This document shows positions 1,556 through 39,454 of a stretch of 64,000 nucleotides of DNA, piece by piece. Source of the DNA: an uncultured virus (IMG/VR IMGVR_UViG_3300033149_004321). Lineage: Duplodnaviria; Heunggongvirae; Uroviricota; Caudoviricetes. The stretch is from IMG/VR virus record IMGVR_UViG_3300033149_004321, one strand, 5' to 3'. Within the stretch, counting starts at the first letter, position 1; every line of letters starts with the position of its first letter. The notes below the pieces were generated by a model, which was not told the origin of the DNA, made no database searches, and saw only the letters and a list, made by a program, of their open reading frames with translations. Position numbers and translations under genes: made by a program.

Positions 1556-1759
1556 TTATATATTTTTCCTTTTTGGTTTTCCATTTCTTGGTCTCACTCT
1601 TTCGATTAAATTTTCAAGTCTATTAAAAAATTCTTCACTTGTGAAATATTTATGAACACCTCTTTTTGATTTGGGTTTGTCCCAATCTACTTTTAATTCC
1701 GCTCGTTTATAATACTTAAAAAATTCCTGAAAATATTTAGTATCAGTTACAAATTTCAT
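1556..1759 (-). CDS. Hypothetical protein
   Basis: ORF in tightly packed minus-strand run. Confidence 0.5.
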   Translation of the reverse strand: MKFVTDTKYFQEFFKYYKRAELKVDWDKPKSKRGVHKYFTSEEFFNRLENLIERVRPRNGKPKRKNI

Positions 1760-1760
1760 T

Positions 1761-2078
1761 TTATTCGATGTTATAATGTTCTTTCAAAATTTCATCCATC
1801 TTTTCATAAATAACATTAGAACTAAAAGGAGAGACACCCTGTTTTGTTTTCTTTTCAAAAACAATCTTTTTTGTTTTTATATTTACAATTTTTGTAATAA
1901 TTACTTTATCAATTCTATATTCCTGACTTTTTCTTATCACATAACAATAGACCCAATAATTTCTTTTTTTATAAACTATTTGAAATTTATAATAACTCCT
2001 TTGTTTTAAAAATTCATATCCTTTTACTGATTCTATGCTCTGAACGGTCTGCGGTTTCCAAACTTTTTCTTTTTGCAT
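1761..2078 (-). CDS. Hypothetical protein
   Basis: ORF in tightly packed minus-strand run. Confidence 0.5.
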   Translation of the reverse strand: MQKEKVWKPQTVQSIESVKGYEFLKQRSYYKFQIVYKKRNYWVYCYVIRKSQEYRIDKVIITKIVNIKTKKIVFEKKTKQGVSPFSSNVIYEKMDEILKEHYNIE

Positions 2079-2111
2079 TTCTTCAATTATGTATGCCCAA
2101 TCTTTTCGACA

Positions 2112-2387
2112 TTATCTTATTTTCAACTGTTTGGATAATATTCTTTGATTTATCATTTTTGTAATTTTCTCCTTCAAAACATCTTTAACATTACCCTCTA
2201 ACATTGGAATTATACCAGAAATATGTATCTGTTGTATTTTAATTTCATATTTATCTTCCTTATTAATACTATTGGGGAAAGCATTTATAGTAAAAAGAAC
2301 TGTATATTTATTACCTTCAAAAATAAATGTGCCATGAAATTCTCTTAACACTGAAAGAATTTTTATTTCTCTTATTCCGTTTTTCAC
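2112..2387 (-). CDS. Hypothetical protein
   Basis: ORF with GTG start in minus-strand run. Confidence 0.5.
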   Translation of the reverse strand: MKNGIREIKILSVLREFHGTFIFEGNKYTVLFTINAFPNSINKEDKYEIKIQQIHISGIIPMLEGNVKDVLKEKITKMINQRILSKQLKIR

Positions 2388-2771
2388 AATTTTTCCTCTT
2401 TTCTTACCTTTTTATTATAATCTTCTGTATTATCGAAAGCCTGTATAATAAATCCTAACTTTTCTTTCCTCTTTTTATGTTTTTCATTTCCATATCTTTT
2501 CATTAAATTTATCTATCATACGACTCTCTCCAACCATCTGCTCCATTGTAAAAACTACACCTTCTTCATCATTTCTAAAATCCAACAAAGAACAACGCAC
2601 TTCTTCTTTCCCTGAATTTACAAGTTTTTTGTTCATGTGCATATCATTTTCAATATGGAAAGCAAGAGACAATCCAAGAGGGTGTAAAATAGTCCTATTT
2701 ATTTCAAATAATAATCCCGTTTCTATCAAAAATTTAGCTGGGTCCTTAACAAACTTTGGCTTCTTATTCAT
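2384..2771 (-). pseudogene. Hypothetical phage protein with 1-nt insertion near 2504
   Basis: GLLFEINRTILHPLGLSL core; removing one A at AAA TTT A ATG extends the frame (KFMKRYGNEKHKKRKEKLGFIIQ...) to TGA 2386-2384, overlapping the next GTG start; length is 3n+1. Confidence 0.55.
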
Positions 2772-2924
2772 TTTATTTTCCAATTTCTATTTGTTCAACT
2801 TTCACTATTTTTTTGCACTCACTACACCTGTATTGCGTTACATTATTTATTTCAATTTCAAATATCCATTCATCACAACCGCATTTGCATTTTAACCAAG
2901 TCAATATTTTTGTAGTCATTATAA

Positions 2925-3290
2925 TTATTTTTTCTTTTTTAAATCTTTTATGGGGTTTTCACTACTAATTTCAAAATATATATCAAATATATTATCTACT
3001 ACTTTCTTATTTAATATTCTTTTTCTTTTTTTCTTATTACTATATTTGCAAAAAAATTCCCTGCAAATAGGTGGTCTATAATTCCATATGCGGCATAGTC
3101 TTTTTCTTGAATCAAAAGCTCTGCATTTGAATAATCCATTTTTCTTTTTTACAAATGTTATTCCATGTGTATATATCCAACCTCCAACTGGAACTTCTTT
3201 TGGGTCTATTTCTCCTTTTATCTTTTTTTCCAATCTAATACCATCACAGCACGTCCGAACACACTCTTTACAATCAATTTTCTTTTTCAT
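2925..3290 (-). CDS. YkgJ-family Cys-cluster (Zn/Fe-chelating) protein
   Basis: CKECVRTCC ... KCRAFD..KRLCRIWNYRPPICREFFC. Confidence 0.75.
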   Translation of the reverse strand: MKKKIDCKECVRTCCDGIRLEKKIKGEIDPKEVPVGGWIYTHGITFVKKKNGLFKCRAFDSRKRLCRIWNYRPPICREFFCKYSNKKKRKRILNKKVVDNIFDIYFEISSENPIKDLKKKK

Positions 3291-3304
3291 GTAATTAATT
3301 ATTT

Positions 3305-3658
3305 TTAAAATATAATATCGTTAGCTTTGCACCAAGCCATAGCAAATTTTTCAGCTGTCTTTTCAAAAGCATATTGAAATTCTCTTCTTTCATATAAAGA
3401 ATGGAACCATTCGTGGCAATAAATTAATGAAAACCCGCCCTCAAAATTAAAAACCCTGCCCCATTTATCTTTAAAAAGAAAAGTGCCGTTTTCAGGAATA
3501 AATATAGTAATAATTTTATTATTAAAATCACATTCTCCCCAAGTATCCTTTACTTCTTTTACCAAAACCACATTACATTTCCATTCTGGTAATAAAGGGG
3601 GTAACTTGCTTTTGATTAATTGTTTTGCTTTTCTTTTGTAATTGGGTTTTCTCGGCAT
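3305..3658 (-). CDS. Putative zinc metallopeptidase-like protein (HExxH)
   Basis: WGEC ... YCHEWFH ... E motif. Confidence 0.5.
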   Translation of the reverse strand: MPRKPNYKRKAKQLIKSKLPPLLPEWKCNVVLVKEVKDTWGECDFNNKIITIFIPENGTFLFKDKWGRVFNFEGGFSLIYCHEWFHSLYERREFQYAFEKTAEKFAMAWCKANDIIF

Positions 3659-3837
3659 CCTAATTCTTTCCTCAAAATATCTCTTTTATATCCAAAAATA
3701 GATAATTTATACAAAGTTTTTCTTGAATGTTTATTTTTACGATTAATTTCTTTATATAACTTATCTGTTATACTATCCACTTTCCAGGTATAATAATTCA
3801 ATAATAATTCTTTCCAAACCTGTTTAATTTTTTTCAA
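3616..3837 (-). CDS. Hypothetical protein whose 5' end lies in the 49-bp repeat
   Basis: TTG start, KKIKQVWKELLLNYYTW... Confidence 0.45.
   Translation of the reverse strand: MKKIKQVWKELLLNYYTWKVDSITDKLYKEINRKNKHSRKTLYKLSIFGYKRDILRKELGCRENPITKEKQNN
3788..3836. repeat. 49-bp perfect direct repeat, copy 1 (copy 2 at 5114-5162)
   Basis: gtataataattcaataataattctttccaaacctgtttaatttttttca is identical at both sites. Confidence 0.95.
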
Positions 3838-5101
3838 TGTTCTTTTCCATTGTATAAGGCGTAAAAATACCCTTCTCATCGGGTTCTAAAATTTTCCTTT
3901 CATCAAGTCTTACATTTATTTCTCTGTTAATGCCATGCTCTGGATGAAAATACCAGATTTTTTGGCTTGGGATAGATGTTACACTTAATTGACTTATTGT
4001 ATATTCTGTTCCACCAACTAAATTTCCGTTTATCAATTTCATATCACCAAGATTGGATTGAATATGAAAATGACCGTAAAGTCCATAATCTATTCTGACG
4101 CCTGTCATGGTTGTTATTTTCCAAAAGTCTCTTTCAACCCCATAATAAGGCGTACCCATCCAAGACCTTACCTGTTCACCATGAGATAAACAAAAATTAT
4201 AATTTCCACATTTGATTAACATTCTTGGGGATTCACTTACATAAGAAACATAATTTTTCTGTTTTGCCATTAATTTTTGAACTATACGATTAAGCATATA
4301 ATCAAAGTTATTTGTTGGTGGCATTTCTCCTGTTCTTTGTGTTAATCTTCCGTGATTCCCTTCAACACAAAACTCCTCTATTAAGGTAAAATGAGGTGCT
4401 AACGTTTGAATGAAATGTCTTTTAATATCCACCAAATCAATTAACTGCTCAACTACTGTTCTGTCAAGAAAATACGCCATTCCTGGACGTAAAGCGAAAC
4501 CTTCTCCCATATCACCAAGATTAAATAAAACTAATTTATCAAGTCCGTGATTCTTTTTATCCTCATATTTGAAATGTATTATTCTTTCTGCTAATAAAGC
4601 TAACCTTTTTCTTGCTATGTCCTGATTAAACGAACCCAACCCCATAGTGGCATCTGGCTTAACTTTCAAGCCATAATGCCAGTCTGAAATCATCCCATGA
4701 AATTCCTGTTGTGTTTTCATTTTCGTTGAAGACCTTACCAAAACAGGAACTTCTCTAAATTTCAAATCCCCTATTAATGAAATGAAATAATTGGCTGTAT
4801 TCTCAACTTGAGCAGATAATTTTCTATACCTTCTTTTCCATTGTTCTAATTCCGATTCAAGTAAATGTTCAGGTGTTCTTTGTCTTTGACTTTGATGGTT
4901 TCTTTCAGATTGGGTATAAATTATTTTTCCTTTTTTTCTTTCCTTTCTTAATTTACCCCTAATATTTTCTTCAGAAATAACACACTTAAATCGTTCCGCT
5001 ACTTTATTGCTTATTTCTGCATAACTAAAAAGTTCATTTCTTAACTCAATACAATATTTCACTATCTCTGGATTGTTTTTCCAATCGAAACGTTTTCTCA
5101 T
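3824..5101 (-). CDS. Calcineurin-like metallophosphoesterase with N-terminal HTH-like region
   Basis: SDWHYG, LGDMGE, EGNHGR, SHGE, GHFH motifs; probable ATG at 5101. Confidence 0.85.
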   Translation of the reverse strand: MRKRFDWKNNPEIVKYCIELRNELFSYAEISNKVAERFKCVISEENIRGKLRKERKKGKIIYTQSERNHQSQRQRTPEHLLESELEQWKRRYRKLSAQVENTANYFISLIGDLKFREVPVLVRSSTKMKTQQEFHGMISDWHYGLKVKPDATMGLGSFNQDIARKRLALLAERIIHFKYEDKKNHGLDKLVLFNLGDMGEGFALRPGMAYFLDRTVVEQLIDLVDIKRHFIQTLAPHFTLIEEFCVEGNHGRLTQRTGEMPPTNNFDYMLNRIVQKLMAKQKNYVSYVSESPRMLIKCGNYNFCLSHGEQVRSWMGTPYYGVERDFWKITTMTGVRIDYGLYGHFHIQSNLGDMKLINGNLVGGTEYTISQLSVTSIPSQKIWYFHPEHGINREINVRLDERKILEPDEKGIFTPYTMEKNIEKN

Positions 5102-5169: not shown

Positions 5170-6331
5170 AATAATTAAAATAATAGTTGTTTTTTAAAAA
5201 CAAAAGCATTATCTTTACATATATGAAAATAACAATTAAATGCAAACTCAATCCAGACAAGAAACAAATTAAGATATTGAATAAGACTTTGTCTAAATGT
5301 CTTATAGCACTTAATTATGTTTCTAAAATCTCTTGGGATAACAAGTGCTTCAATCGTGTAGCACTTCATCATCTTGTCTATTACAAAATCAAATCTAAAT
5401 TTAAATTGTCTTCTCAAATATGCTGTGCAATTAAAGATAAAGTTGCTTTTTCTTATAAAGCTAATAAAAAGAAACAACATATTTTTAAGAAAGCTATATT
5501 GCCTCTTAATTTTAATCGCACCTTCAGTTTCAAAGATAATGAAATTGTTTCTATTTCTACTATTTCTGGTAGACAAAAAATTCCTTTTATGCTTGGAAAA
5601 TACCAAAAACAAATGTTGTTTAAAGCTATTAAGTTTTGTGATAGTGAACTTATTAAACAAAACAATAAATTTTATCTTAATATTGTCATAGAAATCCCAA
5701 ATGAACCAATGAAAAAAACTAAAAATGTGCTCGGCATAGATTTGGGTATTAAAAATATAGCAACTTGTAGTAATGGTAAAAACTTTTCTGGCAATAAAGT
5801 TCAATCTGTTAGAAATCGTTATCAATCTTTGAGGGGAAGGCTTCAAAGTAAAGGCACTAAATCTGCCAAAAGACATTTGAAAAAAATTTCTGGCAGAGAG
5901 AAACGGTTTCAAAAATATATTAATCATCAAATTTCTAAACAGATTGTAAAATTTGCTGTTCAATCCAACTCGAGTATTGCTCTGGAAGATTTGACCAATA
6001 TTAGAAAGACCACCAAACATAGAAAAAACTATAAAAGAATTTTTCATTGTTGGGCTTTTTTTCAACTTCGCCAATATATTCTTTATAAAGCACAACGAGC
6101 TGGTATTCCTATCATTTTTATTAATCCCGCTTATACCAGCCAAATCTGCTCTTCTTGTGGTAAAAAGGGTATACGTAATGGTCAAAACTTTCATTGTAAT
6201 CATTGTTCCTTTCAAGCAAATGCTGACTTTAATGCCAGTCTAAATATTCAAAGGGCTGCCATCAATCAGCCTATTGTAGGCAGTATTTAATATGACTTAC
6301 AAGCCATCTGCTTTAGCTGATGGTAGTTGAT
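5170..6331 (+). mobile_element. IS200/IS605-family tnpB-only (IS1341-type) element
   Basis: tnpB antisense to neighbours; right-end hairpin ccatc-tgctttagct-gatgg followed by tagttgat; removing 5170-6331 restores ...GGT AGA TAA CA ATG on the minus strand; no tnpA. Confidence 0.8.
5223..6290 (+). CDS. tnpB: RNA-guided endonuclease TnpB
   Basis: GIDLG (RuvC-I), IALEDL (RuvC-II), YTSQICSSC...CNHC zinc finger, NADFNASLNI (RuvC-III). Confidence 0.93.
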   Translation: MKITIKCKLNPDKKQIKILNKTLSKCLIALNYVSKISWDNKCFNRVALHHLVYYKIKSKFKLSSQICCAIKDKVAFSYKANKKKQHIFKKAILPLNFNRTFSFKDNEIVSISTISGRQKIPFMLGKYQKQMLFKAIKFCDSELIKQNNKFYLNIVIEIPNEPMKKTKNVLGIDLGIKNIATCSNGKNFSGNKVQSVRNRYQSLRGRLQSKGTKSAKRHLKKISGREKRFQKYINHQISKQIVKFAVQSNSSIALEDLTNIRKTTKHRKNYKRIFHCWAFFQLRQYILYKAQRAGIPIIFINPAYTSQICSSCGKKGIRNGQNFHCNHCSFQANADFNASLNIQRAAINQPIVGSI

Positions 6332-13625: not shown

Positions 13626-14795
13626 CTAATTGTAGACATAAATGTCTGTTAATAGATTACCCACCGAAATGGGCATGCTGGATAATTTCTCATCCAGAGC
13701 ACTGGCCGTGCAATATTTTTTAAAAATGTTAATTGCTGAATTAATATCCCTATCCAGTTTCAAACCACAGTCACAGCTCATTGTTCTTTTATTGAGCGGC
13801 ATGTTATGGGTTTTTCCGCATCGAGAACAAGTTTTAGATGTGTAAGCTTCGTTAATCTTAATTAAATTTTTTCCATACAACTTAGATTTATAATTCAGAA
13901 ATTCTACAAATCTTCCTATTCTCCATTCGTTCTGAATAATTCGATTAAACCAAGGCTGTTTTTCCTTTATCATTCCATTTAAATTTAATCTACCAACTAC
14001 AATAGTTGATTCAGGGCGAATATTAGTTAACCAATAAGAAGCTTTGTGATAATAGTCGTTAATTCTGTTTAAATAACGAGTTATTTGTCTATGAAAAATT
14101 CTATTCTGTTTAAACCACCTCCTTGAAAATTTAATGCATTTATCTCGTTTACTTCTTAATTTGTCAATGTGTTTCGTATAATGGGAAAACTTATCAATTC
14201 TAATTAATTCATTTCTGGATGAATAACCGACAGCTAGAGTCTTGACACCTAAATCAATCCCTATTATGTCATCATTATTTATAATTAATTTTTCATCAAC
14301 CTCAATAGCAAAACAAACAAAATAGTTATTTTTCTGTTTAATTATAGTAACAGTACGATAATCATCAGGTATAGGTTCAGAAGTTCTTACTGTAAAATTG
14401 TTATATCCTCTACCTGTAGGAAGAATAAATCTATAATCATCTATTTTTTTAATATACATTCCGGGGTATTCCTGGGAAATAAATTCTTTTTTTCTCTTAT
14501 ATTTAGGAAAACCTTTACCATTATTAAAAAACCGTTTAAATGCCTTATCAAGTCGAAAATACATGGCTGATAAACATTTATTGTAAACTTTGTTATATTC
14601 CGGATATTCCTTTTTAATAGATGGTAATTGACTTTTCTGTTCATATATAGATAATTGCTTTTTGTTTTTCTCGTAAAAATCTATTTTTTCTTTTAATGCA
14701 AAATTATAAATTAATCTACATCGTTCAGACGCAAACTCTAAATAATTTTTACATTCCTGATTAATCTTTATTTTTATCTTTTTTACTAAAATCAT
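13626..14795 (-). CDS. tnpB: TnpB-family nuclease with rearranged RuvC-II
   Basis: CRLIYNFAL, GFPKYK, GIDLGVK, IVVGRL (Gly at usual Glu), INEAYTSKTCSRC, CDCG, DRDINSAINI. Confidence 0.9.
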   Translation of the reverse strand: MILVKKIKIKINQECKNYLEFASERCRLIYNFALKEKIDFYEKNKKQLSIYEQKSQLPSIKKEYPEYNKVYNKCLSAMYFRLDKAFKRFFNNGKGFPKYKRKKEFISQEYPGMYIKKIDDYRFILPTGRGYNNFTVRTSEPIPDDYRTVTIIKQKNNYFVCFAIEVDEKLIINNDDIIGIDLGVKTLAVGYSSRNELIRIDKFSHYTKHIDKLRSKRDKCIKFSRRWFKQNRIFHRQITRYLNRINDYYHKASYWLTNIRPESTIVVGRLNLNGMIKEKQPWFNRIIQNEWRIGRFVEFLNYKSKLYGKNLIKINEAYTSKTCSRCGKTHNMPLNKRTMSCDCGLKLDRDINSAINIFKKYCTASALDEKLSSMPISVGNLLTDIYVYN

Positions 14796-22516: not shown

Positions 22517-25037
22517 TTAAATTTTTATTTCTTCCATATCAAATAAATTCTTACCCTTATACCATTTCATTTTCATAGGTACTATCTCCCAATAAAATCG
22601 TTTTTTAGTTAATCTTTTATTACTAATACCCATTACCTTTTCAAGTTCGGAATCTTTCACATCAAGCACCAACTCATCGTGTACCTGTATAATTGCTTTT
22701 GATTTCATTTTTTCTTTTTTCAAATCCTTTATTACATTATTTATTCCGTTCTGTAATAAATGATAACTGGTGGCTTGAATGGGTGTGTTTATTATTTGAT
22801 TTATTGATAACGGCGCCCGTCTTCTAAATCCAAAAAACGTTTTAACATACAAATTCCTTTTGTAAAAAGCTATCTGTTCATTCTGCCAATTTTTGATTCC
22901 TTTATGTTCTTGCCAAAGTTCTTTTTCTAAATTCTGCAAATGATAAGGGTCCACTTTTGAAAACGCTGGATATTTAGCTCTATTTTCCCAATACGAACCG
23001 TAAAACATAGCAAACACCCAACCATTTTTTGCATCATATCTTTGCTGTTTTGTAACCTGTCTTATTGGTATTCTGAATATTCTTGACGCCCATTCCCTAT
23101 GAAAATCATATCCTTCTAACAAATATTCAATAAGTTTTTTATCTTTTGAATACATAGCTATTACACAAACCTCTGAACCTCAATCAATTGTTTTATTTTT
23201 TTTGCTTCCTGCTCCCTTTCAGGTATGTTCTGAAAATTAGGTCTTGCGGAACTGCTTCTATAAGTTTCAACAGTGTGATTCATAAACGATGGGTGTATCC
23301 TGTTTCTACTGTCCAATTTCTCAAACCAATTTTTCAAATAAGTCCCTTCAAGTTTTTCAAGTTTTCTAATAGCAAGTATTCTGTTCGTCAATTTTTTCAA
23401 ATTTTCATCTTTCGTCTTTCTCAACATTTTTTTCAAACATTCCGCATCGACAGAATAATTACCTGCACTTGATTTTTCTTTTATCGGTTTCATCCCATAT
23501 AAATCATAATATAAAAATGACAAATCAGGATTTGAATTATAATTAAAATTTTTCTTATATTTTTTTGTAAATAATTTTACAGGCTTGCTTTTTGCTATCT
23601 TTCTTTGATACATCTCAATATTGCTTTGCAACTTTTCTGAAATTTCTTTTAATCTCTCAACATCAATTTGCACGCCTTCTTTTTCCATTCTTGCAAAAGC
23701 TCTTGTGGTTTCCGTAAGAAATAAAGAAGCTCTTTTAAAATCATTTTCATATTCCTGTTTTTTAATTTCCTTTTCCTGTTCCTTTCGCAACCACAAAGTA
23801 TTGCGAACATCTATACAATTATATTTCCCAATATCTTTTATATCTTCTTCTATTAAATTTCCTTGTTCAACTTCACTCTTCCATTGTGAAGAACCTGTCC
23901 TAACATAAATCTGAAATGCCAAAGAAGTCGTTCCCTTTCTTTCATCAATTATATGACTGTTCACCATTGTATCATAAACTTTTCCTCTTATGAAAACATT
24001 GAAGACCCTTTTTGAACATAAATCCTCATACTTTAAATTATGTATTGTCTTTTCTATTTTCTCATCAATTAACAATTTTTTCATTTCTTCATATAAAATC
24101 TTTTTCTGGTTTTCTGTCCATTTAGCTTGTGGGTGTTCTAAAGCAATACTATATGCCTTTTCTGTTTTACTACCAATACCGAACATTAATATTTTGAAAT
24201 CTTCTGTGTGTGTATTTACCCCTGTCGTCAAAACAAAAGTGTTTTTTCTTTTGAAAAGCTTTTAAAATTTTAACAGCTCTTTTAAAATCTTTATATATAA
24301 TAACATTTCCTTCATCCTCGTTTATACCTATCTTTTTAAAAGGTTTTTTTAAATACATCAAACCTTCTCTTATATCCCTTTCAAACAATTTTGTGTGTTC
24401 AGGTCTCCTCAATATGAAAGCCGAATGAAAAAGACAACACACCCAACAATTGTATTTCAAAGATGGAACTATCCTGCCTCTCATTTTTCCAGCGGTTATT
24501 TCAAATTCTGCATCATCCAATATACCTTTTATAGCTTTTTCTCCAACAGCAAATATTAGTTTAGGTTTTATTTTTCTAATATTATGAACCAATCTCGGCT
24601 TGCAATATTTAACTCTTTTCTGATTTGGGTAAATATTGTCTGGTGGTCGGCAAGCAATTGTGTTATCCAATTTAGCATCTCTGTAAATGTTAATCCCATT
24701 TTTCCTGAAAGCTCTAAAAAGAACTTCCCCAGATTCACCAACAAATTGTTTTCCCTTTTCATCTTCAATCTTCAACTTTACCTGGTGCTTCACCTACAAT
24801 GAGAATACCTTTTAATCCTTCACCGCTCGGCTTCATTTTAGGCGAATTGCAATTTTTGTATAGTCCACAAGATTTGCAATTGGCAGGTTGTTCAAGTTTA
24901 TATCGTTCTTCTTCTGACAAAGTAAATAACTGTGGTTTGATTAAACGTCTTTTCGGCGGGTTTCTCTTTCCTATCTTCTGTGGTTCTTCTTTCAAACCAA
25001 ACTCGGCTGGGTCAAAAAATGCGGATTGCTTTTTCAT
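22517..25037 (-). pseudogene. UDG(family 4)-3'-5' exonuclease-family A DNA polymerase fusion, broken into 4 ORFs
   Basis: CKSCGL, GEAPG..ED, ACRPP, HSAFILR (UDG); HNLKYE, YNCID (exo); TYRSSSARPNFQNIP, RYDAK..F..FYG, NTPIQ, QVHDELV (PolA); lesions near 24768, 24227 and 23181. Confidence 0.85.
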
Positions 25038-26638
25038 AAAATAGTAGCTTGAACTTTTTTGAATTTAACAGCTTTTATTCTTGCTTCTGCTATATCACAA
25101 TATTCCTGATTTATTTCTATACCAATATATTTTCTATTTAATATTTTACACGCGACAGCTGTCGTACCTGAACCGATAAAAGGGTCAAGAACGATGTCGC
25201 CTGTTCGTGTGGTCAACGTAATTAAATATTTGAACAATTTTACAGGCTTCACCGTTTCGTGTATATTCTTCTTTCCTTTTCCTAGTCCTTTGTTCCTTTC
25301 AGATTTACTCGCTTTCGGTATTATCATAAAAGGGAACGTTTCCCTTGCACATTTATTCCACTCATCCAAAGAAAAGTATCGGGAAAATGAACCTGAATCC
25401 TTTAGGGGTAATTTTATATTTCTTTCTACTTTATAAAATGATTTTCCTCCATCTGTTTTTATATGCCTACCACCCGATTGATAATTTTTCCCGTTATCCA
25501 ACACACCATCAGACACAAGCAAGTTTGCAGGAAACCTGCCGTAAGGTTTTATTGTTTGCGCTTTCTTTCCTTTTCTTGAATCAACACCCAAAAATTTTTT
25601 CTCATCTGGTTCTAAATTATACGGTTGTTTATAATTAATACCGTTTTTCCATCCAACTCTTTTAGGTATATACTCTTCTTTATCATAATTAGACAAAGGA
25701 ATTCGACAATCGTCCAACCAAGTAATTCCCTTACCATTCTTCAATGCCTGGTCAACATAACTCTTTTCACTTAATGGTTTCATACATACTAATATGACTT
25801 CAAGAGCTGGTTTCATTTGCATTCCAGCGTAACTTCCGTCAAGAACTTTCGCTTGGTCGGTGGCGGGTTTAGTCTCCCATACTGCTTTATTTCTTTTTTC
25901 TTCTGTATCTAATAAATTATAACTTGTAGAATTTTTTTGAATATTAGGCATTCTTGCACTTCTTTTTTTTCCGTCAGCATCTATTTTTTCACCTATAATT
26001 TCCCTTTCAGCTTCTTTCCGTTCAATTAATTCATCAAAACGATTATCAAGATTTAATATTTCTTTTAATTGTAAATAATAATATTTAGATGGTAACTGTA
26101 TTCCTGATAATCTGCCTTCCCACCAACTATATGCTGTATTTGTACCAAGCATTTTATCAATTGCAGACATAGATAAATCTTTTTCTATTCTCTTTTTCTT
26201 TAAATAATTAGCAAAAGGTTTATAAGTATTTTGAGTTCTATTATTCCGTTTATCCACTATTTTACTTATTGAACTCGCTTTCGGGAATCCTGATGCGTAA
26301 ACGTGATACAAACTTGAAAACCCCATCTCAAATCCCGCATCTTCAAGATTAACTATCATTCGAGAAAGCACATCTTGGCGTGGTGCAGACATCACAAGAC
26401 ACCAAGCTCCTGGTTTCAACACTCGCAAACATTCTTTCCATATATCAATTGACGGAACTGCTCTGTCCCAATCTTTCCCCATAAACTTATAACCATACAG
26501 CTATGGAGGGTCGGTAATAACAGCATCTATACAATTGTCTGGCAACTTTTTCATTTCTTCCAGACAATCACTGTTTATTACGCGACCCAAATATTCCTTT
26601 AAATTTGATTGTTTATTTTTAGATTGTTTTTTCTTCAT
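25034..26638 (-). pseudogene. N6A/N4C DNA methyltransferase (beta class) with HTH insert; 6-nt insertion containing TAG in DPPY
   Basis: INSDCLEEMKKLPDNCIDAVITDPP*LYG, GRFPANL, HETVKP, VLDPFIGSGTT. Confidence 0.85.
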
Positions 26639-28223: not shown

Positions 28224-29045
28224 ATGAAAAAAATTGACGAATTTGTTAATAAGATTATTTATGGTAACTGCATTGAAGTAATGCATGAATTTCCTGATAA
28301 TAGTATTGATTTGACTTTAACATCACCGCCTTATGATGATTTAAGAGAATATGGTGGACATAAATTTGATTTTGTTATATTCAAAAAGATAGCAAGAGAA
28401 TTATATAGAATAACAAAAAAAGGTGGTATAGTTGTCTGGGTAGTTGGAGACGCCACTATCAAAGGAAGTGAAACGGGAACAAGCTTTAAACAAGCATTAT
28501 ATTTTAAAGCGGTCGGTTTTAATTTACACGATACTATGATATATGAAAGCGAAAAACCCCCTTTATCTCACAACAGATATGAACAGAAATTTGAATATAT
28601 GTTTGTGTTTTCAAAAGAAAAGCCAAAAACTTTTAATCCTATAAAAATAAAAACAACATACAAAAAAAGTTTGCATAATTATAATTTAGGTTCTTCTGCA
28701 AGCATAAAAGAAAAAAAGTATGCTATGAGAAAAAGAAATGAAAAAACTATTATAAAAAAATATAAATTTAAGGGGAATATTTGGAAATATGTTGCTGGTA
28801 GTTCTTCAGCAAAAGATAAAATAGCATATCAACATCCAGCTATCTTTCCCGAACAGTTAGCCAAAGACCATATCATATCTTGGAGTAATAAAGGAGATAT
28901 AGTTCTTGACCCGATGTGTGGTTCTGGAACTACTTGTAAGATGGCAAAAAAGTATGGAAGAAATTTTATTGGTATAGAAATAGAAAAAAGTTATGTTGAA
29001 ATAGCAAGAAAAAGAATCAAAAAGATTCAAAGTGTTTTAATATAA
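28224..29045 (+). CDS. N4C/N6A DNA methyltransferase (beta class)
   Basis: TSPPYD, HPAIFPEQL, VLDPMCGSGTT. Confidence 0.93.
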   Translation: MKKIDEFVNKIIYGNCIEVMHEFPDNSIDLTLTSPPYDDLREYGGHKFDFVIFKKIARELYRITKKGGIVVWVVGDATIKGSETGTSFKQALYFKAVGFNLHDTMIYESEKPPLSHNRYEQKFEYMFVFSKEKPKTFNPIKIKTTYKKSLHNYNLGSSASIKEKKYAMRKRNEKTIIKKYKFKGNIWKYVAGSSSAKDKIAYQHPAIFPEQLAKDHIISWSNKGDIVLDPMCGSGTTCKMAKKYGRNFIGIEIEKSYVEIARKRIKKIQSVLI

Positions 29046-29057
29046 AAAAAGGCCCCA

Positions 29058-30402
29058 ATGGAAGATAAAATAATTTCCCAACACCTTCAAGACTGTATGC
29101 TGAACCGTGCCATAGTTGATACTAATTTTTTATCTTTAATAAGGCACGTTTTAAAACCAGCTTATATGTCTGAAATGTCCAGATGAACATTTCCACGATG
29201 AGGCATTACATTTTGTAAATAACTTGCCAGAAAGCAAGCGTGAAGATTATGTAAAATATATCAAAAAAATCTTATCAATAAAAAAAGCCAATTCTGATTA
29301 TTTAATAAGCAGGGTAAATAAGTTTGTTAAAGCAAGAGAATATGAAAAAGCCGCCATTAATTTTGCTGAAGACGTATCCAAAGGTAAATTTGAAAAAGCC
29401 GAAAGAACAATTTTGTCTGCTATGAAAACGGGAATAGAAAGAGAGGATATAGGTTCGGATTATTTTAGGGACTTTTCGGATTTAGACAACAGATTTGAAA
29501 AAGAAAAACCGTTAGTAACCACCTGTTTTACTGCTTTAGATAAATTGATATTGGGGTTCAAGAGACAGGAGTTTGTGATTATTATGGGAAAATTCAAAGG
29601 GAAAAAATCATGGTATCTTTATGAAATAGCAAGACACGGATTAATGAAAGGATTAAACGTATTGATAATTTCCCATGAAAATTCTATAGCTGAAATAAGA
29701 AAAAGAATGGATATGATTTCTGGCGCTTTGCTTGATGAAAACACTTGTAAGAATGGTGAAGAAGGAAAGAAAATAAAATTGTTTTATTACGATGAAGAAG
29801 AAGAAAGAATAAAAAATGAAAAAGTGTATAGAGAAAGTGTGTTTAATTCCCAAGCTGTAAAAAAAACAAGGAAAACACTCGAAAGATTTGGTGGCAGGTT
29901 ACTCATAAAAAAGTATCCGCCAAGGGTAGCGAACATGTTTGAAGTAATGCGTTATCTTGACCACATAGAAAAATTTGAAAAGTTCATTCCAGATATTGTA
30001 ATTAATGATTACATTACTATTATGTCACCGCTTGAAGGAGATGAAAGAAAACCGCTACACGAATCGGAAAGAAATAACGGATTATTACATAAAACAATTG
30101 CAGATGACAGAAATTGTTTAGTGATAACAGCTTCACAAATTAATAGAGAAGAAGTAAATAAGCCAGTTCCAACCGTGAAAGGTTTTGCTGGCGCAATAGC
30201 GAAAGCAGGGGACTGTGATAAAACAATAGTAATATGCCAGACGGACGAGCAGGAAAAATTATTTCCGATTCAGGAGGGGAAGCTTTTTGTATTGCTTAAC
30301 AGAACGGGGAGCGGGCAACACCAACATTGTATATTTGGGTCAAATTTGATGATTGGTCAATTTGCATTATATTCAAGATTGGAACGTGGTCGAAAGAGAT
30401 GA
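29058..30402 (+). pseudogene. DnaB-like replicative helicase; frameshift near 29170
   Basis: GKFKGKKS Walker A-like, ISHEN, VINDY, ITASQINR; N-terminus MEDKIISQHLQD..AYMS is in a different frame from KCPDEHFHDE. Confidence 0.75.
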
Positions 30403-33128
30403 ACTACAAAGCTATAAAAAAATCCAAACTTGAAAATTTTTTTAAAAATATTAAATTCAAAACAATTCCTATGAAGCATCAATACATTGGACTATATTTT
30501 GCAATTAAAGAAAACTTAAATTCAGTTATGTTCTGGTTGGGCGTGGGAACGGGAAAGACCAAGTTGGCATTGGATTTATGTTTATTATGGAAAGTGAAAA
30601 AGATACTTGTCATTTGTCCAAATTCTGTAACTAAAACCTGGATTTATGAAACAAAAAAACATTCTGATTTCAAAGCTATAAGATTGATAGGAACTAAAAA
30701 TCAAAGAATAGAAAGATTAAATAAAAAAAGAAACATATACATAATTAATTATGAAGGCTTGAAAGTATTATATAGTAAATTAATTAATGAAAGATTTGAT
30801 TGTATAATTGCGGATGAATGTTTTCCTTATAATCAGAAAGTATTTACAAATAAAGGAGAAATTGAAATAGGAAAAATTGTGGAAGATAAAAAGAAAGTAA
30901 AAGTATTAACCTATAATCATAAAACGAAATTTTTAGAATGGAAAAAAATAAGAAAATTCATAAAAAACCCTATTACTAATGAAACAGAATTTGTTAAAAT
31001 AAATCATGAAAATGGTAATTTTGCTTGCACTTTAAATCATAAAATATATATTAAAGATAAAGGCTATATACAAGCAAAAAGCTTAATTAATTTATTTTCT
31101 TGTAAAGGGGAAAGCTATGAAAAGAATATTAATTTGTTGTCAATGCGAAAAAAAGTTTACAATGAAATATTGGCAAAAATATCGTTTAGAAAAAGATCCA
31201 GATGCAAAAGTATTTTGTTCCAAAAAATGTTGGGCAATTTGGAGATGCAAACAGCCGGAATATCAAAAAATGTTCAAGGAAGAACGTGTGAAAAAATTGA
31301 AACGGGGTATAATCAAATCAAAAAGAGAAAACAAAGAAGTGTGGGCAAAAAAATACAAAGCTTCTTCAGAAAGAATGAAAAAGAACAACCCCATGTACAA
31401 TTCAGAAACGCGGAAAAAGGTATCAGAAAAAAATCGTGGAAAGCCTTTTTTGATTCGTGGTGGAAACGGCAAAATACCAATACCCCAATTGATTCTTGCT
31501 ACTGCTTTAAATTGGAAAATGGAAATACCCGTAAAAACAAAACCTGCATCAAAGGGGCTTTTACCTGTCTTACCGCATTTACCAGATTGTTACAAAATAG
31601 ATATAGGAAACAAAAGAATGAAAATAGGAATAGAAGTAGATGGGCATTCCCACAATTCTGGAAAACAAAAATTTTTAGACAGAAAAAAAGAAATAGTGTT
31701 AAATTCTCTCGGCTGGAAAGTTTTAAGATTTACAAACAAAGAAGTATTAGAAGACCTTCCGAAAGTTCTTTCAAAAATAAATACATATATAATTTAGAAA
31801 TTGAAGATAATCATAATTATTTTATTAACAATATTCTTGTTTCAAATTGTCATTATGTCAAATCCAAGTTCGCCAATAGAACTATAATGACAAACCGCCT
31901 TTGCAGACAAACGAAAAAGAAAATATTTTTGACTGGCACGCCAATAGCAACAGATGAAAAGGATTTGTGGGCGGAATATTGGTGTCTTGATAATGGATTT
32001 TCACTTGGAAACAATTACTGGCGATTTCTGAACACATACTTTTACAAGAGTTTCTACGATTGGAAGCCAAAAAAAATATGTTCTATCTGTGGTAATTTTT
32101 ATATAAGTTTAAGAAACCATCTTAAAGAAAAACACCCAAGCATTTCAACTTTGGTATATCATAATAAATATAAAAATGAAAGAACAATACAAGAATTAAT
32201 ATTGAATAGGATTACAAATAAGACTTTGAGATACGAAACTGAAGAATGTCTGGATTTGCCTGAAAAAGTATATTTAAAATATTATGCAAAAATGACAAAG
32301 AGACAAAAGAAAGACACATTAAAATTTATATCAGAAAGATATAATGAACTAACAGAAGCAAACGTATTGACAAAAACAATAAGACTATCACAAATAACTG
32401 GGGGTTTCCTTATGAGAAAGAAAAATATTAATATAAAAAAGCATAAGCTTAAAGAATTAATTGAAGAAGGGAATAAATATAAAAGTGCGGAGGAATTTGT
32501 AAATGCCATATATAATAATCAAATTACATCAGTTTCTAAAGCACCTAATCCTATGAATCAAATGATTAATGTTGCCGCTATGGTTCAAGATGCGGGTTTT
32601 TTGGATGCCAAAGACTTTTGGAATAAAATGATAAAAAAGAAAATATACACATATAAAAAGAACCCTAAACTTGATTTATTATTGGAAGTATTGGAATCAA
32701 TAAAAGGGAAGTGTATTATATTTCATCGCTTCACAAGAGAAGCTGAAATAATTGAACAGGCTTTGGATAGCAAAAAAATAAATTACGCTTCTGTTCGTGG
32801 TAGCATTACGGGGAAGGAAAGAGAAAAGGAATTTAATAAATTCAAAAATAATTCAGGTTGTAATATATTAATTTCACATCCTAAATGCGGGGGAGAAGGT
32901 ATAAATCTTCAACACGCAAATTATGTCATATTTTATTCAAATAATTATGAGGGGGCTACCACAAGAATCCAAGCCGAGAATCGAGTGCATAGGGTAGGGC
33001 AAAACAAGAAATGCTTTATAGTCGATTTGGTTATTGAAAATTCCATTGATGAACAGATTTTGGATATTGGACTATCCAAAAAGGAAAAAGCGAAAAAAGT
33101 CTTGAATTATATCTCGAAAATGCACTGA
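30399..33128 (+). CDS. SNF2/DEAD-family helicase containing an intein
   Basis: GVGTGKT, INYEG, ADE|CH, LTGTP, GGEGINLQ, QAENRVHRVGQ. Confidence 0.92.
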   Translation: MNYKAIKKSKLENFFKNIKFKTIPMKHQYIGLYFAIKENLNSVMFWLGVGTGKTKLALDLCLLWKVKKILVICPNSVTKTWIYETKKHSDFKAIRLIGTKNQRIERLNKKRNIYIINYEGLKVLYSKLINERFDCIIADECFPYNQKVFTNKGEIEIGKIVEDKKKVKVLTYNHKTKFLEWKKIRKFIKNPITNETEFVKINHENGNFACTLNHKIYIKDKGYIQAKSLINLFSCKGESYEKNINLLSMRKKVYNEILAKISFRKRSRCKSILFQKMLGNLEMQTAGISKNVQGRTCEKIETGYNQIKKRKQRSVGKKIQSFFRKNEKEQPHVQFRNAEKGIRKKSWKAFFDSWWKRQNTNTPIDSCYCFKLENGNTRKNKTCIKGAFTCLTAFTRLLQNRYRKQKNENRNRSRWAFPQFWKTKIFRQKKRNSVKFSRLESFKIYKQRSIRRPSESSFKNKYIYNLEIEDNHNYFINNILVSNCHYVKSKFANRTIMTNRLCRQTKKKIFLTGTPIATDEKDLWAEYWCLDNGFSLGNNYWRFLNTYFYKSFYDWKPKKICSICGNFYISLRNHLKEKHPSISTLVYHNKYKNERTIQELILNRITNKTLRYETEECLDLPEKVYLKYYAKMTKRQKKDTLKFISERYNELTEANVLTKTIRLSQITGGFLMRKKNINIKKHKLKELIEEGNKYKSAEEFVNAIYNNQITSVSKAPNPMNQMINVAAMVQDAGFLDAKDFWNKMIKKKIYTYKKNPKLDLLLEVLESIKGKCIIFHRFTREAEIIEQALDSKKINYASVRGSITGKEREKEFNKFKNNSGCNILISHPKCGGEGINLQHANYVIFYSNNYEGATTRIQAENRVHRVGQNKKCFIVDLVIENSIDEQILDIGLSKKEKAKKVLNYISKMH
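30819..31847 (+). mobile_element. Intein (343 aa) in helicase motif II (DE|CH)
   Basis: Starts CFPYNQKVFT, block B CTLNHKIY, ends YNLEIEDNHNYFINNILVSN, Cys at +1. Confidence 0.92.
31117..31797 (+). CDS. Vsr/DUF559-type endonuclease nested in the intein in an alternative frame
   Basis: AAGGGG RBS then ATG; CCQC..FCSKKC zinc motif, NPM..ETRKKVS NUMOD-like, YKIDIG, IEVDGHSH, DRKKE..L..LGWKVLRF. Confidence 0.85.
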   Translation: MKRILICCQCEKKFTMKYWQKYRLEKDPDAKVFCSKKCWAIWRCKQPEYQKMFKEERVKKLKRGIIKSKRENKEVWAKKYKASSERMKKNNPMYNSETRKKVSEKNRGKPFLIRGGNGKIPIPQLILATALNWKMEIPVKTKPASKGLLPVLPHLPDCYKIDIGNKRMKIGIEVDGHSHNSGKQKFLDRKKEIVLNSLGWKVLRFTNKEVLEDLPKVLSKINTYII

Positions 33129-37906: not shown

Positions 37907-39454
37907 TTACCTTATCATAAAAGGATCAACGGCTTTATACAGTCCTTGTCTATCTCTTGCTTTTCTATACTTGATAAAAGCATTGCTTTTAATGGCGTCT
38001 TCTATTGTTTTTGTTTTTGATGTGCCTCCAGAAGCACCCAGAGTAATTATATCTGCGTTTATTGATGTTTTGGGGAAGACTACTATTTCTACATGGACTA
38101 TTTTATTGCTGTTTCTTGCTTTCCAAAAAACAAGACAACCTTCTTTTGATTGGGATAATATTATTTCTTTCTCTTTAAAATAATTATATAATCCCTCCGC
38201 ACTTAAATCAAATTTAGGTGTACGTGGCAATAGTCCCACACCTTTCAAGCCTTCAACAGCGAGTCCCGAATTATGTACTATAAAATTTTCCGCAATAAAA
38301 GTATTTAGTTCTGTTTCTAAATTATAAGTTGGTTCTTTTTGAACTTTTTTTATTTCTAAAACTCTTTCCACACCAAAAACACTATTTAAATTTAATAAAT
38401 CTCTAAAGTTTTTTATATTTAATTTTCTTTCGCCATTTCTTTTTGATTCAGGGTACCAAGTAAAGACATACATATCCTTTGCATTTTTTACTTTTTTACC
38501 TTTTATAAGTATATCTTTGTTTCTTTTTTGTATGTACACATTTTCTGTTCTTCCTTTTAACATTCTTAATAATAATTGTAATTCATAAATTAAATTTTTA
38601 TAACAAGAAGCAAAACGTATTCCTGAATAAGTAGCTTTTCCTTTCCTTTTTCTAATGAAACCATACCCATCTGAATCTATATATCCTTCTAAAAATAAAT
38701 AAACTTGTCTTTTATTCATTTCCCAAACTATCTTTGGCAATTTTCTTTCAAAAGATTTTGTCTGAAAACCGTTTTTTATTAATTCATTAACAATTTTAAC
38801 ATCACTAAAATATATGCCGTGTGTTTTATGAAATATGATTTTATTATTTGTAATTTTTTCTATTTTACTTCTTGCTTTTTCTCTTAATTTATTGTTATAA
38901 AATGCCAAATATACATGTCTATTATCTGTAATATGCCCATCCCCTAACATCGCTCCTAAAAACCAGATAAACTCGTCTGAATAATTTATGCCTTTGCTTT
39001 TCCATTTGTATTTATTTAATATTATTAAAGAATCATCTCTTTTTAAATCACAAAATCTTTTCCAAACAAGTTTTGTGTTATTTCTAATTTCCCACCCTGG
39101 TTTTCCATTACCACGTTCAATTACAAGAAATGGATGATTATGGGATGCTTTAATTCTAGAACATCTTGTTCTTATTTCATAAATTTCTTGTTTTCCATTT
39201 TTAAATAAATTTAAAACATTACATTTTTTCAATTTTCCTTCTTTAAAATCAAATGACCAAACTTTTTCTTTTGGCTCTATTTCTTGTATTTTTTTATAAC
39301 CTTTAGTTGTCAAGATTGGTGTATCCTTTGGAAAACAGCAGTCAAATCCTTTCATAGGATCATCGCCAGCCCACAAATAAGGAACGCCAATAAAGTGCTT
39401 AACATATTCCAAAAAAAGCTGTCTCAATTCTTCCATTATTTCTTCTTCACTCAT
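37907..39454 (-). CDS. NlpC/P60 peptidoglycan hydrolase (putative endolysin) containing an intein
   Basis: IGVPYLWAGDDPMKGFDC|SGL..., GCLVFW, IVHVEI. Confidence 0.88.
   Translation of the reverse strand: MSEEEIMEELRQLFLEYVKHFIGVPYLWAGDDPMKGFDCCFPKDTPILTTKGYKKIQEIEPKEKVWSFDFKEGKLKKCNVLNLFKNGKQEIYEIRTRCSRIKASHNHPFLVIERGNGKPGWEIRNNTKLVWKRFCDLKRDDSLIILNKYKWKSKGINYSDEFIWFLGAMLGDGHITDNRHVYLAFYNNKLREKARSKIEKITNNKIIFHKTHGIYFSDVKIVNELIKNGFQTKSFERKLPKIVWEMNKRQVYLFLEGYIDSDGYGFIRKRKGKATYSGIRFASCYKNLIYELQLLLRMLKGRTENVYIQKRNKDILIKGKKVKNAKDMYVFTWYPESKRNGERKLNIKNFRDLLNLNSVFGVERVLEIKKVQKEPTYNLETELNTFIAENFIVHNSGLAVEGLKGVGLLPRTPKFDLSAEGLYNYFKEKEIILSQSKEGCLVFWKARNSNKIVHVEIVVFPKTSINADIITLGASGGTSKTKTIEDAIKSNAFIKYRKARDRQGLYKAVDPFMIR
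38270..39337 (-). mobile_element. LAGLIDADG intein (356 aa)
   Basis: CFPKDTPILT start, ASHNHPF, FLGAMLGDG, FLEGYIDSDG, TYNLETELNTFIAENFIVHN, Ser at +1. Confidence 0.95.

Follow-up and report, generated by a model that had tools for sequence, protein, structure and literature searches.

Inteins whose endonuclease is encoded outside the intein reading frame have been described before. The cyanobacterial dnaX intein is contiguous, has a disordered in-frame middle, and carries a LAGLIDADG endonuclease in an overlapping open reading frame (ORF) with Shine-Dalgarno (SD) motifs. The ratio of nonsynonymous to synonymous substitution rates (dN/dS) is low in its nuclease frame and high in its host frame, empty, mini, and full alleles are found, and secondary invasion has been proposed (bioRxiv 10.64898/2026.09.14.751524). 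For actinobacteriophages, the accessible part of a second preprint describes antisense genes of LAGLIDADG and VSR-like type and sense genes of endonuclease VII-like type in frame 3, in inteins of polymerase, minor capsid, terminase, and thymidylate synthase genes, proposes invasion by free-standing genes, and presents the inteins as still mobile (bioRxiv 10.1101/2025.01.02.630785). In fractured genes, according to the accessible text, split inteins surround a free Vsr-like endonuclease gene, the 3' end of which overlaps the C-terminal intein part by 6-69 bp, at 15 loci (PMC2677866). Here, we describe an intein in a SNF2-type helicase gene of an uncultured tailed phage (IMG/VR record IMGVR_UViG_3300033149_004321), analysed as a stretch of 64,000 nucleotides that is called the window below. 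A separate gene for a predicted Vsr-like endonuclease is nested in this intein in the +1 frame, and its end is written over the strand with which the C-terminal splicing half of the intein begins. The general architecture of out-of-frame intein nucleases is already published, as the original prediction for this locus, made from the sequence alone, had allowed for. To this, we add a strand with two functions, a family that includes both split and free states, and a pair of phages suited to testing.

The locus resembles the dnaX intein in being a contiguous intein with an out-of-frame nuclease ORF and an SD motif, and its relatives show the same dN/dS contrast and likewise include empty, mini, and full alleles. 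However, the dnaX nuclease is a LAGLIDADG protein, its ORF is called +2, and it occurs in one host gene and one phylum, whereas the present nuclease is a zinc- and Vsr-like protein encoded in the +1 frame, and its family is found in a terminase as well as in superfamily 2 (SF2) helicases and clamp loaders. The overlap between nuclease and splicing strand seen here is not described in the dnaX text (bioRxiv 10.64898/2026.09.14.751524). The actinobacteriophage inteins, as far as the accessible part of that preprint goes, likewise carry an endonuclease in another frame or strand within a full intein, VSR-like ones included. There, the VSR-like genes are antisense, whereas here the sense +1 frame is the rule of the family and the gene overlaps the C-terminal splicing half. 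The fractured genes, in their accessible description, share with our locus the strand, the nuclease superfamily, and the position of the nuclease 3' end over the C-terminal intein part. However, a fractured-gene intein is split by stop codons and a new start, whereas the window intein is contiguous, with an open frame and no Met before the C-terminal strand. We found no description of a sense +1 Vsr-like family, or of splicing-strand overlap in a contiguous intein, in the accessible literature; the supplementary tables of the actinophage preprint may list such cases.

The helicase ORF (30399-33128, + strand) matches SNF2-rel_dom, ResIII, and Helicase_C in Pfam. The ATG at 30399, which overlaps the stop codon of an upstream DnaB-like gene, is taken as its start, and a TTG opening at 30327 given by the ORF tool is set aside. 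The N-extein (30399-30818, +, 140 aa) contains the Walker A motif GTGKT and ends in IIADE. The class 1 intein (30819-31847, +, 343 aa, from CFP to ILVSN) corresponds to helicase residues 141-483. The C-extein (31848-33128, +) starts with CHYV and contains motif III (LTGT), a Helicase_C domain (PF00271, E 2.5e-18), and a match to phrog_62 (E 1.4e-82). The insertion site is helicase motif II, DE/CH, between the flanks IIADE and CHYV. The intein has Cys1, a block B of T71-L-N-H74, Asn343, and Cys+1, as a class 1 intein should, and C1 and N343 are invariant across 83 aligned inteins. The splicing domain is matched by TIGR01445 (E 1.8e-8), and TIGR01443 scores 15 bits on the C-terminal half, slightly below its cut-off of 15.6. 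These motifs and the restored DECH sequence, which reads DECHH in empty alleles of relatives, suggest that the window intein splices.

An AlphaFold model of the intein based on an alignment of the 83 sequences separates an ordered splicing domain from a disordered middle. The N-terminal splicing half (30819-31100, +, intein residues 1-94, single coding) has a pLDDT (predicted local distance difference test) score of 92-98, and residues 321-343, which include the single-coding rest of the C-terminal splicing half (31798-31847, +), have a pLDDT of 96-97. In residues 95-295, the pLDDT is mostly 45-60, save for one helix near 104-124, and a strand at residues 299-306 has a pLDDT of about 81. The model superimposes on the splicing domain of the Mtu RecA intein (3ifj) with a Z score of 18.0 and a root-mean-square deviation of 2.1 over 129 residues. 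Residues 1-94 and 320-343 supply only 118 of these, so the strand at 299-306 is probably part of the Hint fold. Between the halves lies a stop-free filler (31101-31709, +, residues 95-297) without a recognisable domain. Searches of the intein frame against Pfam and NCBIfam give splicing-domain matches only, and no PHROGs family matches its overlapped part. The intein is thus not of the canonical type with an in-frame endonuclease, consistent with the original prediction that the intein frame carries no endonuclease motif.

The nested endonuclease gene (31117-31797, +) encodes 226 aa in the +1 frame and has its own ATG and stop. These positions, the frames, and the helicase frame open through a 343-aa intein are as originally predicted, and domain searches place splicing domains in the intein frame and DUF559 in the +1 frame. 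Residues 158-223 match Pfam DUF559 with an E-value of 1.1e-11, and the protein contains IEVDGHSH and LGWKVLRF. The N-terminal part presents a zinc module (Cys7/Cys10/Cys34/Cys38) with a weak L24e match (E 0.004), followed by a linker with a long helix, the conserved motif SERMKKNNPM, and the motif RGGNG. The description of the nuclease as a Zn-finger, NUMOD-like, Vsr/DUF559 protein accordingly stands for the four-Cys module and DUF559, whereas NUMOD is a resemblance only, and no NUMOD family in Pfam matches at E up to 1. Candidate catalytic residues of the Vsr-like domain are E136, D162, D175, H179, and D188, all intact. The last four are invariant in family columns, and an invariant Glu stands at the corresponding place of the first in alignment A3. 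Profile searches match the C-terminal domain to the solved structures 3hrl (E 4.7e-10) and I-Bth0305I (3r3p, E 4.8e-5); the direct profile alignment to 3r3p spans only the D175-D188 part. I-Bth0305I lies in a group I intron in recA, has two NUMOD2 motifs, and uses E170, D196, N208, H213, and D222 for catalysis, according to the accessible part of its description (PMC3239194; PDB 3r3p). On that description, both proteins combine an N-terminal DNA-binding region with a C-terminal Vsr-like domain, and their catalytic residues are spaced by 26, 12, 5, and 9 positions in I-Bth0305I and by 26, 13, 4, and 9 in the window nuclease. Unlike I-Bth0305I, the window nuclease has a four-cysteine zinc module and is nested in an intein, and identity is about 20%. 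By domain and residue spacing, the nuclease is predicted to be an EDxHD-type, Vsr-like homing endonuclease.

The helicase frame has no stop across the nuclease gene, although the overlap has a G+C content of only 31.7% and stops would be expected there. We compared it with three nulls that keep the nuclease protein or its codons: synonymous resampling by window usage, shuffling of codon order, and synonymous permutation within the gene. The expected number of helicase-frame stops is on average 27, 20, and 17, respectively, with minima of 14, 9, and 7, and none of the 20,000 trials run for each null leaves the frame open. The open helicase frame is kept by selection, far beyond chance, as the original prediction had argued.

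The same register extends across a large family. Nuclease similarity was the sole criterion for collecting loci, which were assigned to classes only later, with a profile score of 80 or more defining membership; each scan kept its best 80 matches, and locus and cluster counts are samples. The first set has 174 loci including the window, namely 116 family members and 58 generic DUF559 loci. Of the family members, 112 are nested in the +1 frame of a contiguous intein, 2 lack an intein, 1 is split, and 1 runs into the end of its contig, whereas none of the 58 generic loci, which serve as a control, lies in an intein. A second set of 160 loci, sought with a free-standing member as lead, contains 136 nested, 12 with one half detected, 8 without an intein, 3 with halves in separate ORFs, and 1 fused. 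With the control loci dropped and duplicates merged at 90%, both sets give 275 loci in 209 clusters at 90% identity: 189 nested in +1, 6 truncated at the edge of a contig with the same register still open, 9 free-standing genes, 3 split inteins, 1 decayed copy, and 1 fusion to the N-half. L264, one of the three second-set loci with halves in separate ORFs, is left out of these counts (score 52 under translation table 11). Read with table 25 (TGA = Gly), it shows the nested +1 layout at 1621-4401, with 39 TGA codons in the helicase and 13 in the nuclease. Among the sampled loci, no nuclease lies in the +2 frame of, or antisense to, a detected intein half. A representative library contains 893 proteins matching at E up to 1e-10, a count of proteins and not of genomic contexts. 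The architecture is therefore not rare, contrary to the original prediction.

Insertion is directly after DE or EE in 165 of 188 nested clusters. A rough motif rule assigns the 188 hosts to SF2 helicases (146), clamp-loader-like proteins (23), and others (19, one a terminase), and most nested copies are at Walker B sites of helicases and clamp loaders. The nuclease is matched by 40 GenBank phage records, including cultured phages and complete genomes. All six of the GenBank phage regions opened list the host gene only, in accordance with the prediction that such nucleases are missed by annotation. The passage on the intein in the paper on the Corynebacterium phage phi673 mentions no nuclease inside it (PMC6132909). 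The nearest relatives of the window nuclease in the sampled sets are 48-52% identical. In one metagenome contig (L192, 2066-3025), a DinB-like gene region is joined to the middle of a nested nuclease and the helicase C-part; the N-half is absent, though near-identical loci (L017, L094, and L275) have it, and the contig is possibly misassembled.

Selection in the overlap can be read from relatives. In 4 of 4 close phage pairs, the nuclease frame has a dN/dS of 0.04-0.13 and the host frame one of 1.2-2.2, values that are uncorrected counts and come from pairs of which three share the same three genomes. In these relatives, purifying selection is seen in the nuclease frame but is lacking from the host frame, in line with the per-frame comparison that the original prediction had proposed. 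In addition, the filler is less similar than the nuclease in all 35 pairs selected for >55% nuclease identity, although this selection tilts the outcome in that direction.

The two frames meet in a dual-function zone (31710-31797, +), where the last 29 nuclease codons overlap the C-terminal splicing half. In particular, the nuclease motif GWxVLRF, G199-W-K-V-L-R-F in the window, overprints the first strand of this half, which reads R-L-E-S-F-K-I in the intein frame (family consensus R-V-E-S-I-E-I), and the nuclease stop TAA falls within the intein YNL motif. The Gly codon of the motif is GGG, giving intein Val, in 144 of 169 nested loci; the same codon is used at 179 of 688 other Gly positions that are unconstrained, in 6 of 27 generic DUF559 loci, and in 2 of 9 free-standing ones. 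TTG encodes the Leu in 123 of 163 nested loci (background 119/389), and AGR the Arg in 146 of 171 (background 556/1265). Together, the preferred GGG, TTG, and AGR codons yield V-E-S-I-E-I in the intein, and the signature is absent from free-standing loci. The bias at the Gly codon is not required by any stop-avoidance rule. In this zone, both frames are under selection, as judged from codon choice. With GGC and TTA, the window departs from the consensus but retains the hydrophobic alternation of the strand. Mini-inteins at the same site carry an equivalent strand, and in 3 of 3 split relatives a Met lies just before it in the C-half. The last strand and helix of the nuclease share bases with the first strand of the C-terminal half, which probably fixes the +1 register. 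Of the suggestion that splicing discards a junk frame, the view that splicing would discard the filler is supported, whereas the term junk is not, since in the overlap both frames are constrained.

The shared bases also bear on the possibility of a sequencing or assembly error, in which two compensating indels would have broken an ordinary in-frame DUF559 intein. In-frame and fused forms do exist (P0153; P0013, P0004, P0151, and L267; P0152). However, bases 31710-31797 are needed in both frames and no indel pair reconciles them, which excludes the two-indel artefact there. The register is common to 189 clusters, complete phage genomes among them, and the nuclease comes with an SD, ATG, and stop of its own. 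The same 2730 bases recur at 100% identity in a second virus record (G001), a match that may or may not stem from independent reads. Such an error is therefore extremely improbable.

The nuclease is probably made from its own start. AAGGGG (31105-31110, +), an SD-like sequence, lies 6 nt 5' of the ATG, so the ribosome-binding site, start, and stop named in the original prediction are all there, and the +1 frame is closed by a stop 10 codons 5' of the ATG. In the family, GGAG or GAGG precedes 38 of 116 +1-frame ATGs at intein codons 80-110 but 77 of 1549 +1-frame ATGs in exteins, and many loci have strong AAGGAG or GGAGG motifs. Alternatively, a programmed +1 frameshift from the helicase/intein frame would make the nuclease as a fusion to the N-extein and N-half, as might be read from the four fused N-half/nuclease sequences (P0013, P0004, P0151, and L267) and from the 125 of 188 nested loci without a clear SD by the pattern used. 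However, the sixfold SD enrichment at the expected ATG, the strong motifs, and the closed frame in the window argue against it, and each of the three fusions for which counts or trees are available stands alone among nested relatives and could be the product of indel errors. We consider a frameshift highly improbable and favour internal initiation. Two further candidates for control of the gene were rejected. A weak predicted hairpin (31095-31112) covers AAGGGG (SD unpaired 0.36-0.50), but translational control by such a hairpin, as in fractured genes, is not a family trait (36/63 below shuffled, p 0.16). Internal sigma-70 promoters give 22 matches versus 17.3 +/- 4.1 by chance, and none is on the + strand just 5' of the ATG.

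A homing-like pattern is seen in Vibrio and Corynebacterium phages. Between two Vibrio phages (L009 and L013), the intein is 95.8% identical and the exteins 78.2% and 76.4%, with sharp edges. Phage phi673 carries a 302-aa intein that phi674 lacks, and the exteins of the two differ at 17 of 1605 bases, including all three of the +1 codon (Cys in phi673, Val in phi674). Three relatives have an empty DECHH site, and three others have a different 150-aa mini-intein there. Some intein-free sites have a residue unfit as +1 nucleophile, reading DEAHH (L176 101-1789, phage 142E35-1) or DEVHH (L346 51-1655, phi674), so homing there must carry the Cys codon along. The helicase of Vibrio phage PS65A.1 (L182 101-3232) has two inteins, a long LAGLIDADG-like one at Walker A and a mini-intein at Walker B. 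The helicase is missing from the L345 record.

Taken with the two-frame selection, these patterns make it very probable that the window carries a two-frame mobile intein, the steps of which we infer as follows. Ribosomes from the helicase start would make a 909-aa precursor, and the Hint halves (residues 1-94 and about 298-343) would excise the 343-aa insert together with the filler, restoring DECH. Other ribosomes would initiate at the internal AAGGGG/ATG and make the separate 226-aa Vsr-like endonuclease. This protein would cut intein-free helicase alleles near the Walker B codons, and repair of the cut allele would copy the whole element. Selection would preserve the nuclease protein in the +1 frame and forbid stops in the helicase frame. 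Both ORFs, the +1 register, and the selection can be read directly from sequence, as can the fold assignments within the limits of prediction, whereas splicing, internal initiation, the cleavage site, and homing of the window copy are deduced.

Several points weigh against this mechanism, in addition to the uncorrected dN/dS counts mentioned above. A clear SD by the pattern used is seen in no more than 63 of 188 nested loci, and the expected zone contains no ATG in 28 of the 188. Ser342, not His, precedes the terminal Asn of the window intein. A penultimate His is usual in class 1 inteins, though not universal, and among the 188 nested relatives the ending is HN in 165 and SN in 21; the upstream His of the DNHNY motif is present in the window. 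The top Foldseek matches of the nuclease are 3r3p, 3hrl, and 1vsr, all with E above 0.001, and the match to I-Bth0305I is weak (E 3e-3, template-modelling score 0.60 on the target). Identities of the intein N-half and the nuclease correlate moderately (Mantel rho 0.36, null maximum 0.08), indicating a partly shared history in which modules may be exchanged. A search of viral contigs with the helicase C-extein returned no relative of the window among 10 candidate stretches. Selection on the nuclease and homing-like patterns are thus documented only in relatives, since no close relative or empty allele was found for the window. This negative result, and the existence of a decayed relative (L329), would also suit a window copy that no longer homes, its nuclease being a recent relic or otherwise useful, for example in cutting competing phage DNA, and only splicing mattering. 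However, none of the four cysteines or five candidate catalytic residues is lost, the ORF has its full length, and relatives show purifying selection and homing-like patterns. Loss of homing is accordingly highly improbable, and the mobile two-frame intein remains our preferred explanation.

The family also occurs in other states. Three loci (L109, L242, and L259) have the fractured-gene layout, with a stop after the N-half, a new start for the C-half, and 94-121 nt overlaps. Their fillers contain 15-22 stops, they have the same register as the nested loci, and they form one clade (Shimodaira-Hasegawa-like approximate likelihood ratio test 98). Stop depletion in these loci (P 0.037, 0.34, and 0.007) was considered as a sign of nested descent and rejected; it is gone once the C-half overlap is excluded. 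In accordance, T precedes AA, AG, or GA in 54 of 198 cases in their fillers and in 110 of 326 elsewhere, which gives no stop-avoidance signal. Eight of the 9 free-standing genes are just upstream of a helicase-like gene; in 6 of these 8, the helicase-like gene shows an intein-free Walker B motif, and in 2 the motif is not seen. The free-standing genes require 7 changes on a 48-row tree, and a single clade is rejected (approximately unbiased test, p-AU 0.017). The decayed relative L329 is stop-depleted and retains intein remnants. Besides the four N-half/nuclease fusions, P0152 is a nuclease fused to a C-half, with 7 members, and a search for its DNA context gave two weak zinc-finger matches only. 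P0153 is a distant DUF559 intein with the nuclease in frame. The search for longer or fused forms scored 8000 candidates and found 3 proteins, a weak test of the rarity of in-frame forms.

Tentatively, and at a probability that we put somewhat short of even, these states may belong to one old and very large intein lineage, in which a Vsr-like nuclease locked in the +1 frame by the shared strand moves among three states: free beside an intein-free helicase, nested in a contiguous intein, and associated with a split intein. Fractured genes would arise from nested ones by stops in the filler and a Met ahead of the shared strand, without a new invasion, and nested nucleases would repeatedly escape to a place beside their target gene. 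The single register in 189 clusters, the one clade of split loci with that register, and the free genes, which do not form a single clade and 8 of 9 of which are next to a helicase-like gene, speak for this model. The absence of a stop-avoidance signal in the split fillers speaks against it, as do the poorly resolved deep branches (4/45 starred); the trees give no origin or direction. That a free-standing gene invaded a mini-intein, as originally predicted, is plausible and agrees with the published model, but the event would be old and family-wide and not one in this genome.

The rest of the window is a tailed-phage segment with genes for capsid, prohead protease, tape measure, PolA, clamp and clamp loader, RecA, and primase. 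A second intein (37907-39454, -) is canonical, with an in-frame LAGLIDADG endonuclease. Its short host protein contains GVPYLWAG...DC/SGL and, later, a GHV-like motif, and has a weak PHROG match to a minor tail protein; we take it to be NlpC/P60-like. A TnpB-like gene (5187-6290, +; PF07282 and PF01385) is opposite to its neighbouring genes. Its antisense frame (5175-6215, -) is open for 346 codons, with AAAGGAACAATG near the start; the antisense protein has no Pfam or PHROGs match, and the only relative found is an identical copy. TTA, CTA, and TCA codons number 1 in this gene versus 25 in the other TnpB-like gene of the window (13626-14795, -; HTH_OrfB domain). Such a low count has a probability of about 3e-10 under window codon usage and occurs in 239 of 2000 trials under the gene's own codon set. 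The family A DNA polymerase is in two ORFs 5 bases apart (23161-24231 and 22517-23155, -), covering Pfam positions 2-146 and 170-378. An N6/N4 methylase (25034-26482, -, 482 aa) matches Pfam over residues 14-466 for about 185 profile positions, indicating large inserts, one of which looks like a helix-turn-helix. A hidden HNH gene in a methylase insert has reportedly been found in one study. The window encodes another methylase at 28224-29045.

Such inteins would look as if their nuclease had decayed, although they are probably mobile. Out-of-frame intein nucleases are treated as rare in the accessible text of the two preprints, and this family alone has at least about 200 distinct members. 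The strand shared by nuclease and splicing domain offers a clean example from nature of dual protein coding, with both frames selected. The Corynebacterium glutamicum phages phi673, with the intein, and phi674, without it, have 99% identical exteins and provide a ready test pair, with a laboratory host that is harmless. The split and free-standing relatives bear on how inteins gain endonucleases and on the origin of split inteins. If nested, split, and free members are indeed states of one lineage, the family would provide an intermediate, so far missing, that links free homing endonucleases with full inteins and with natural split inteins.

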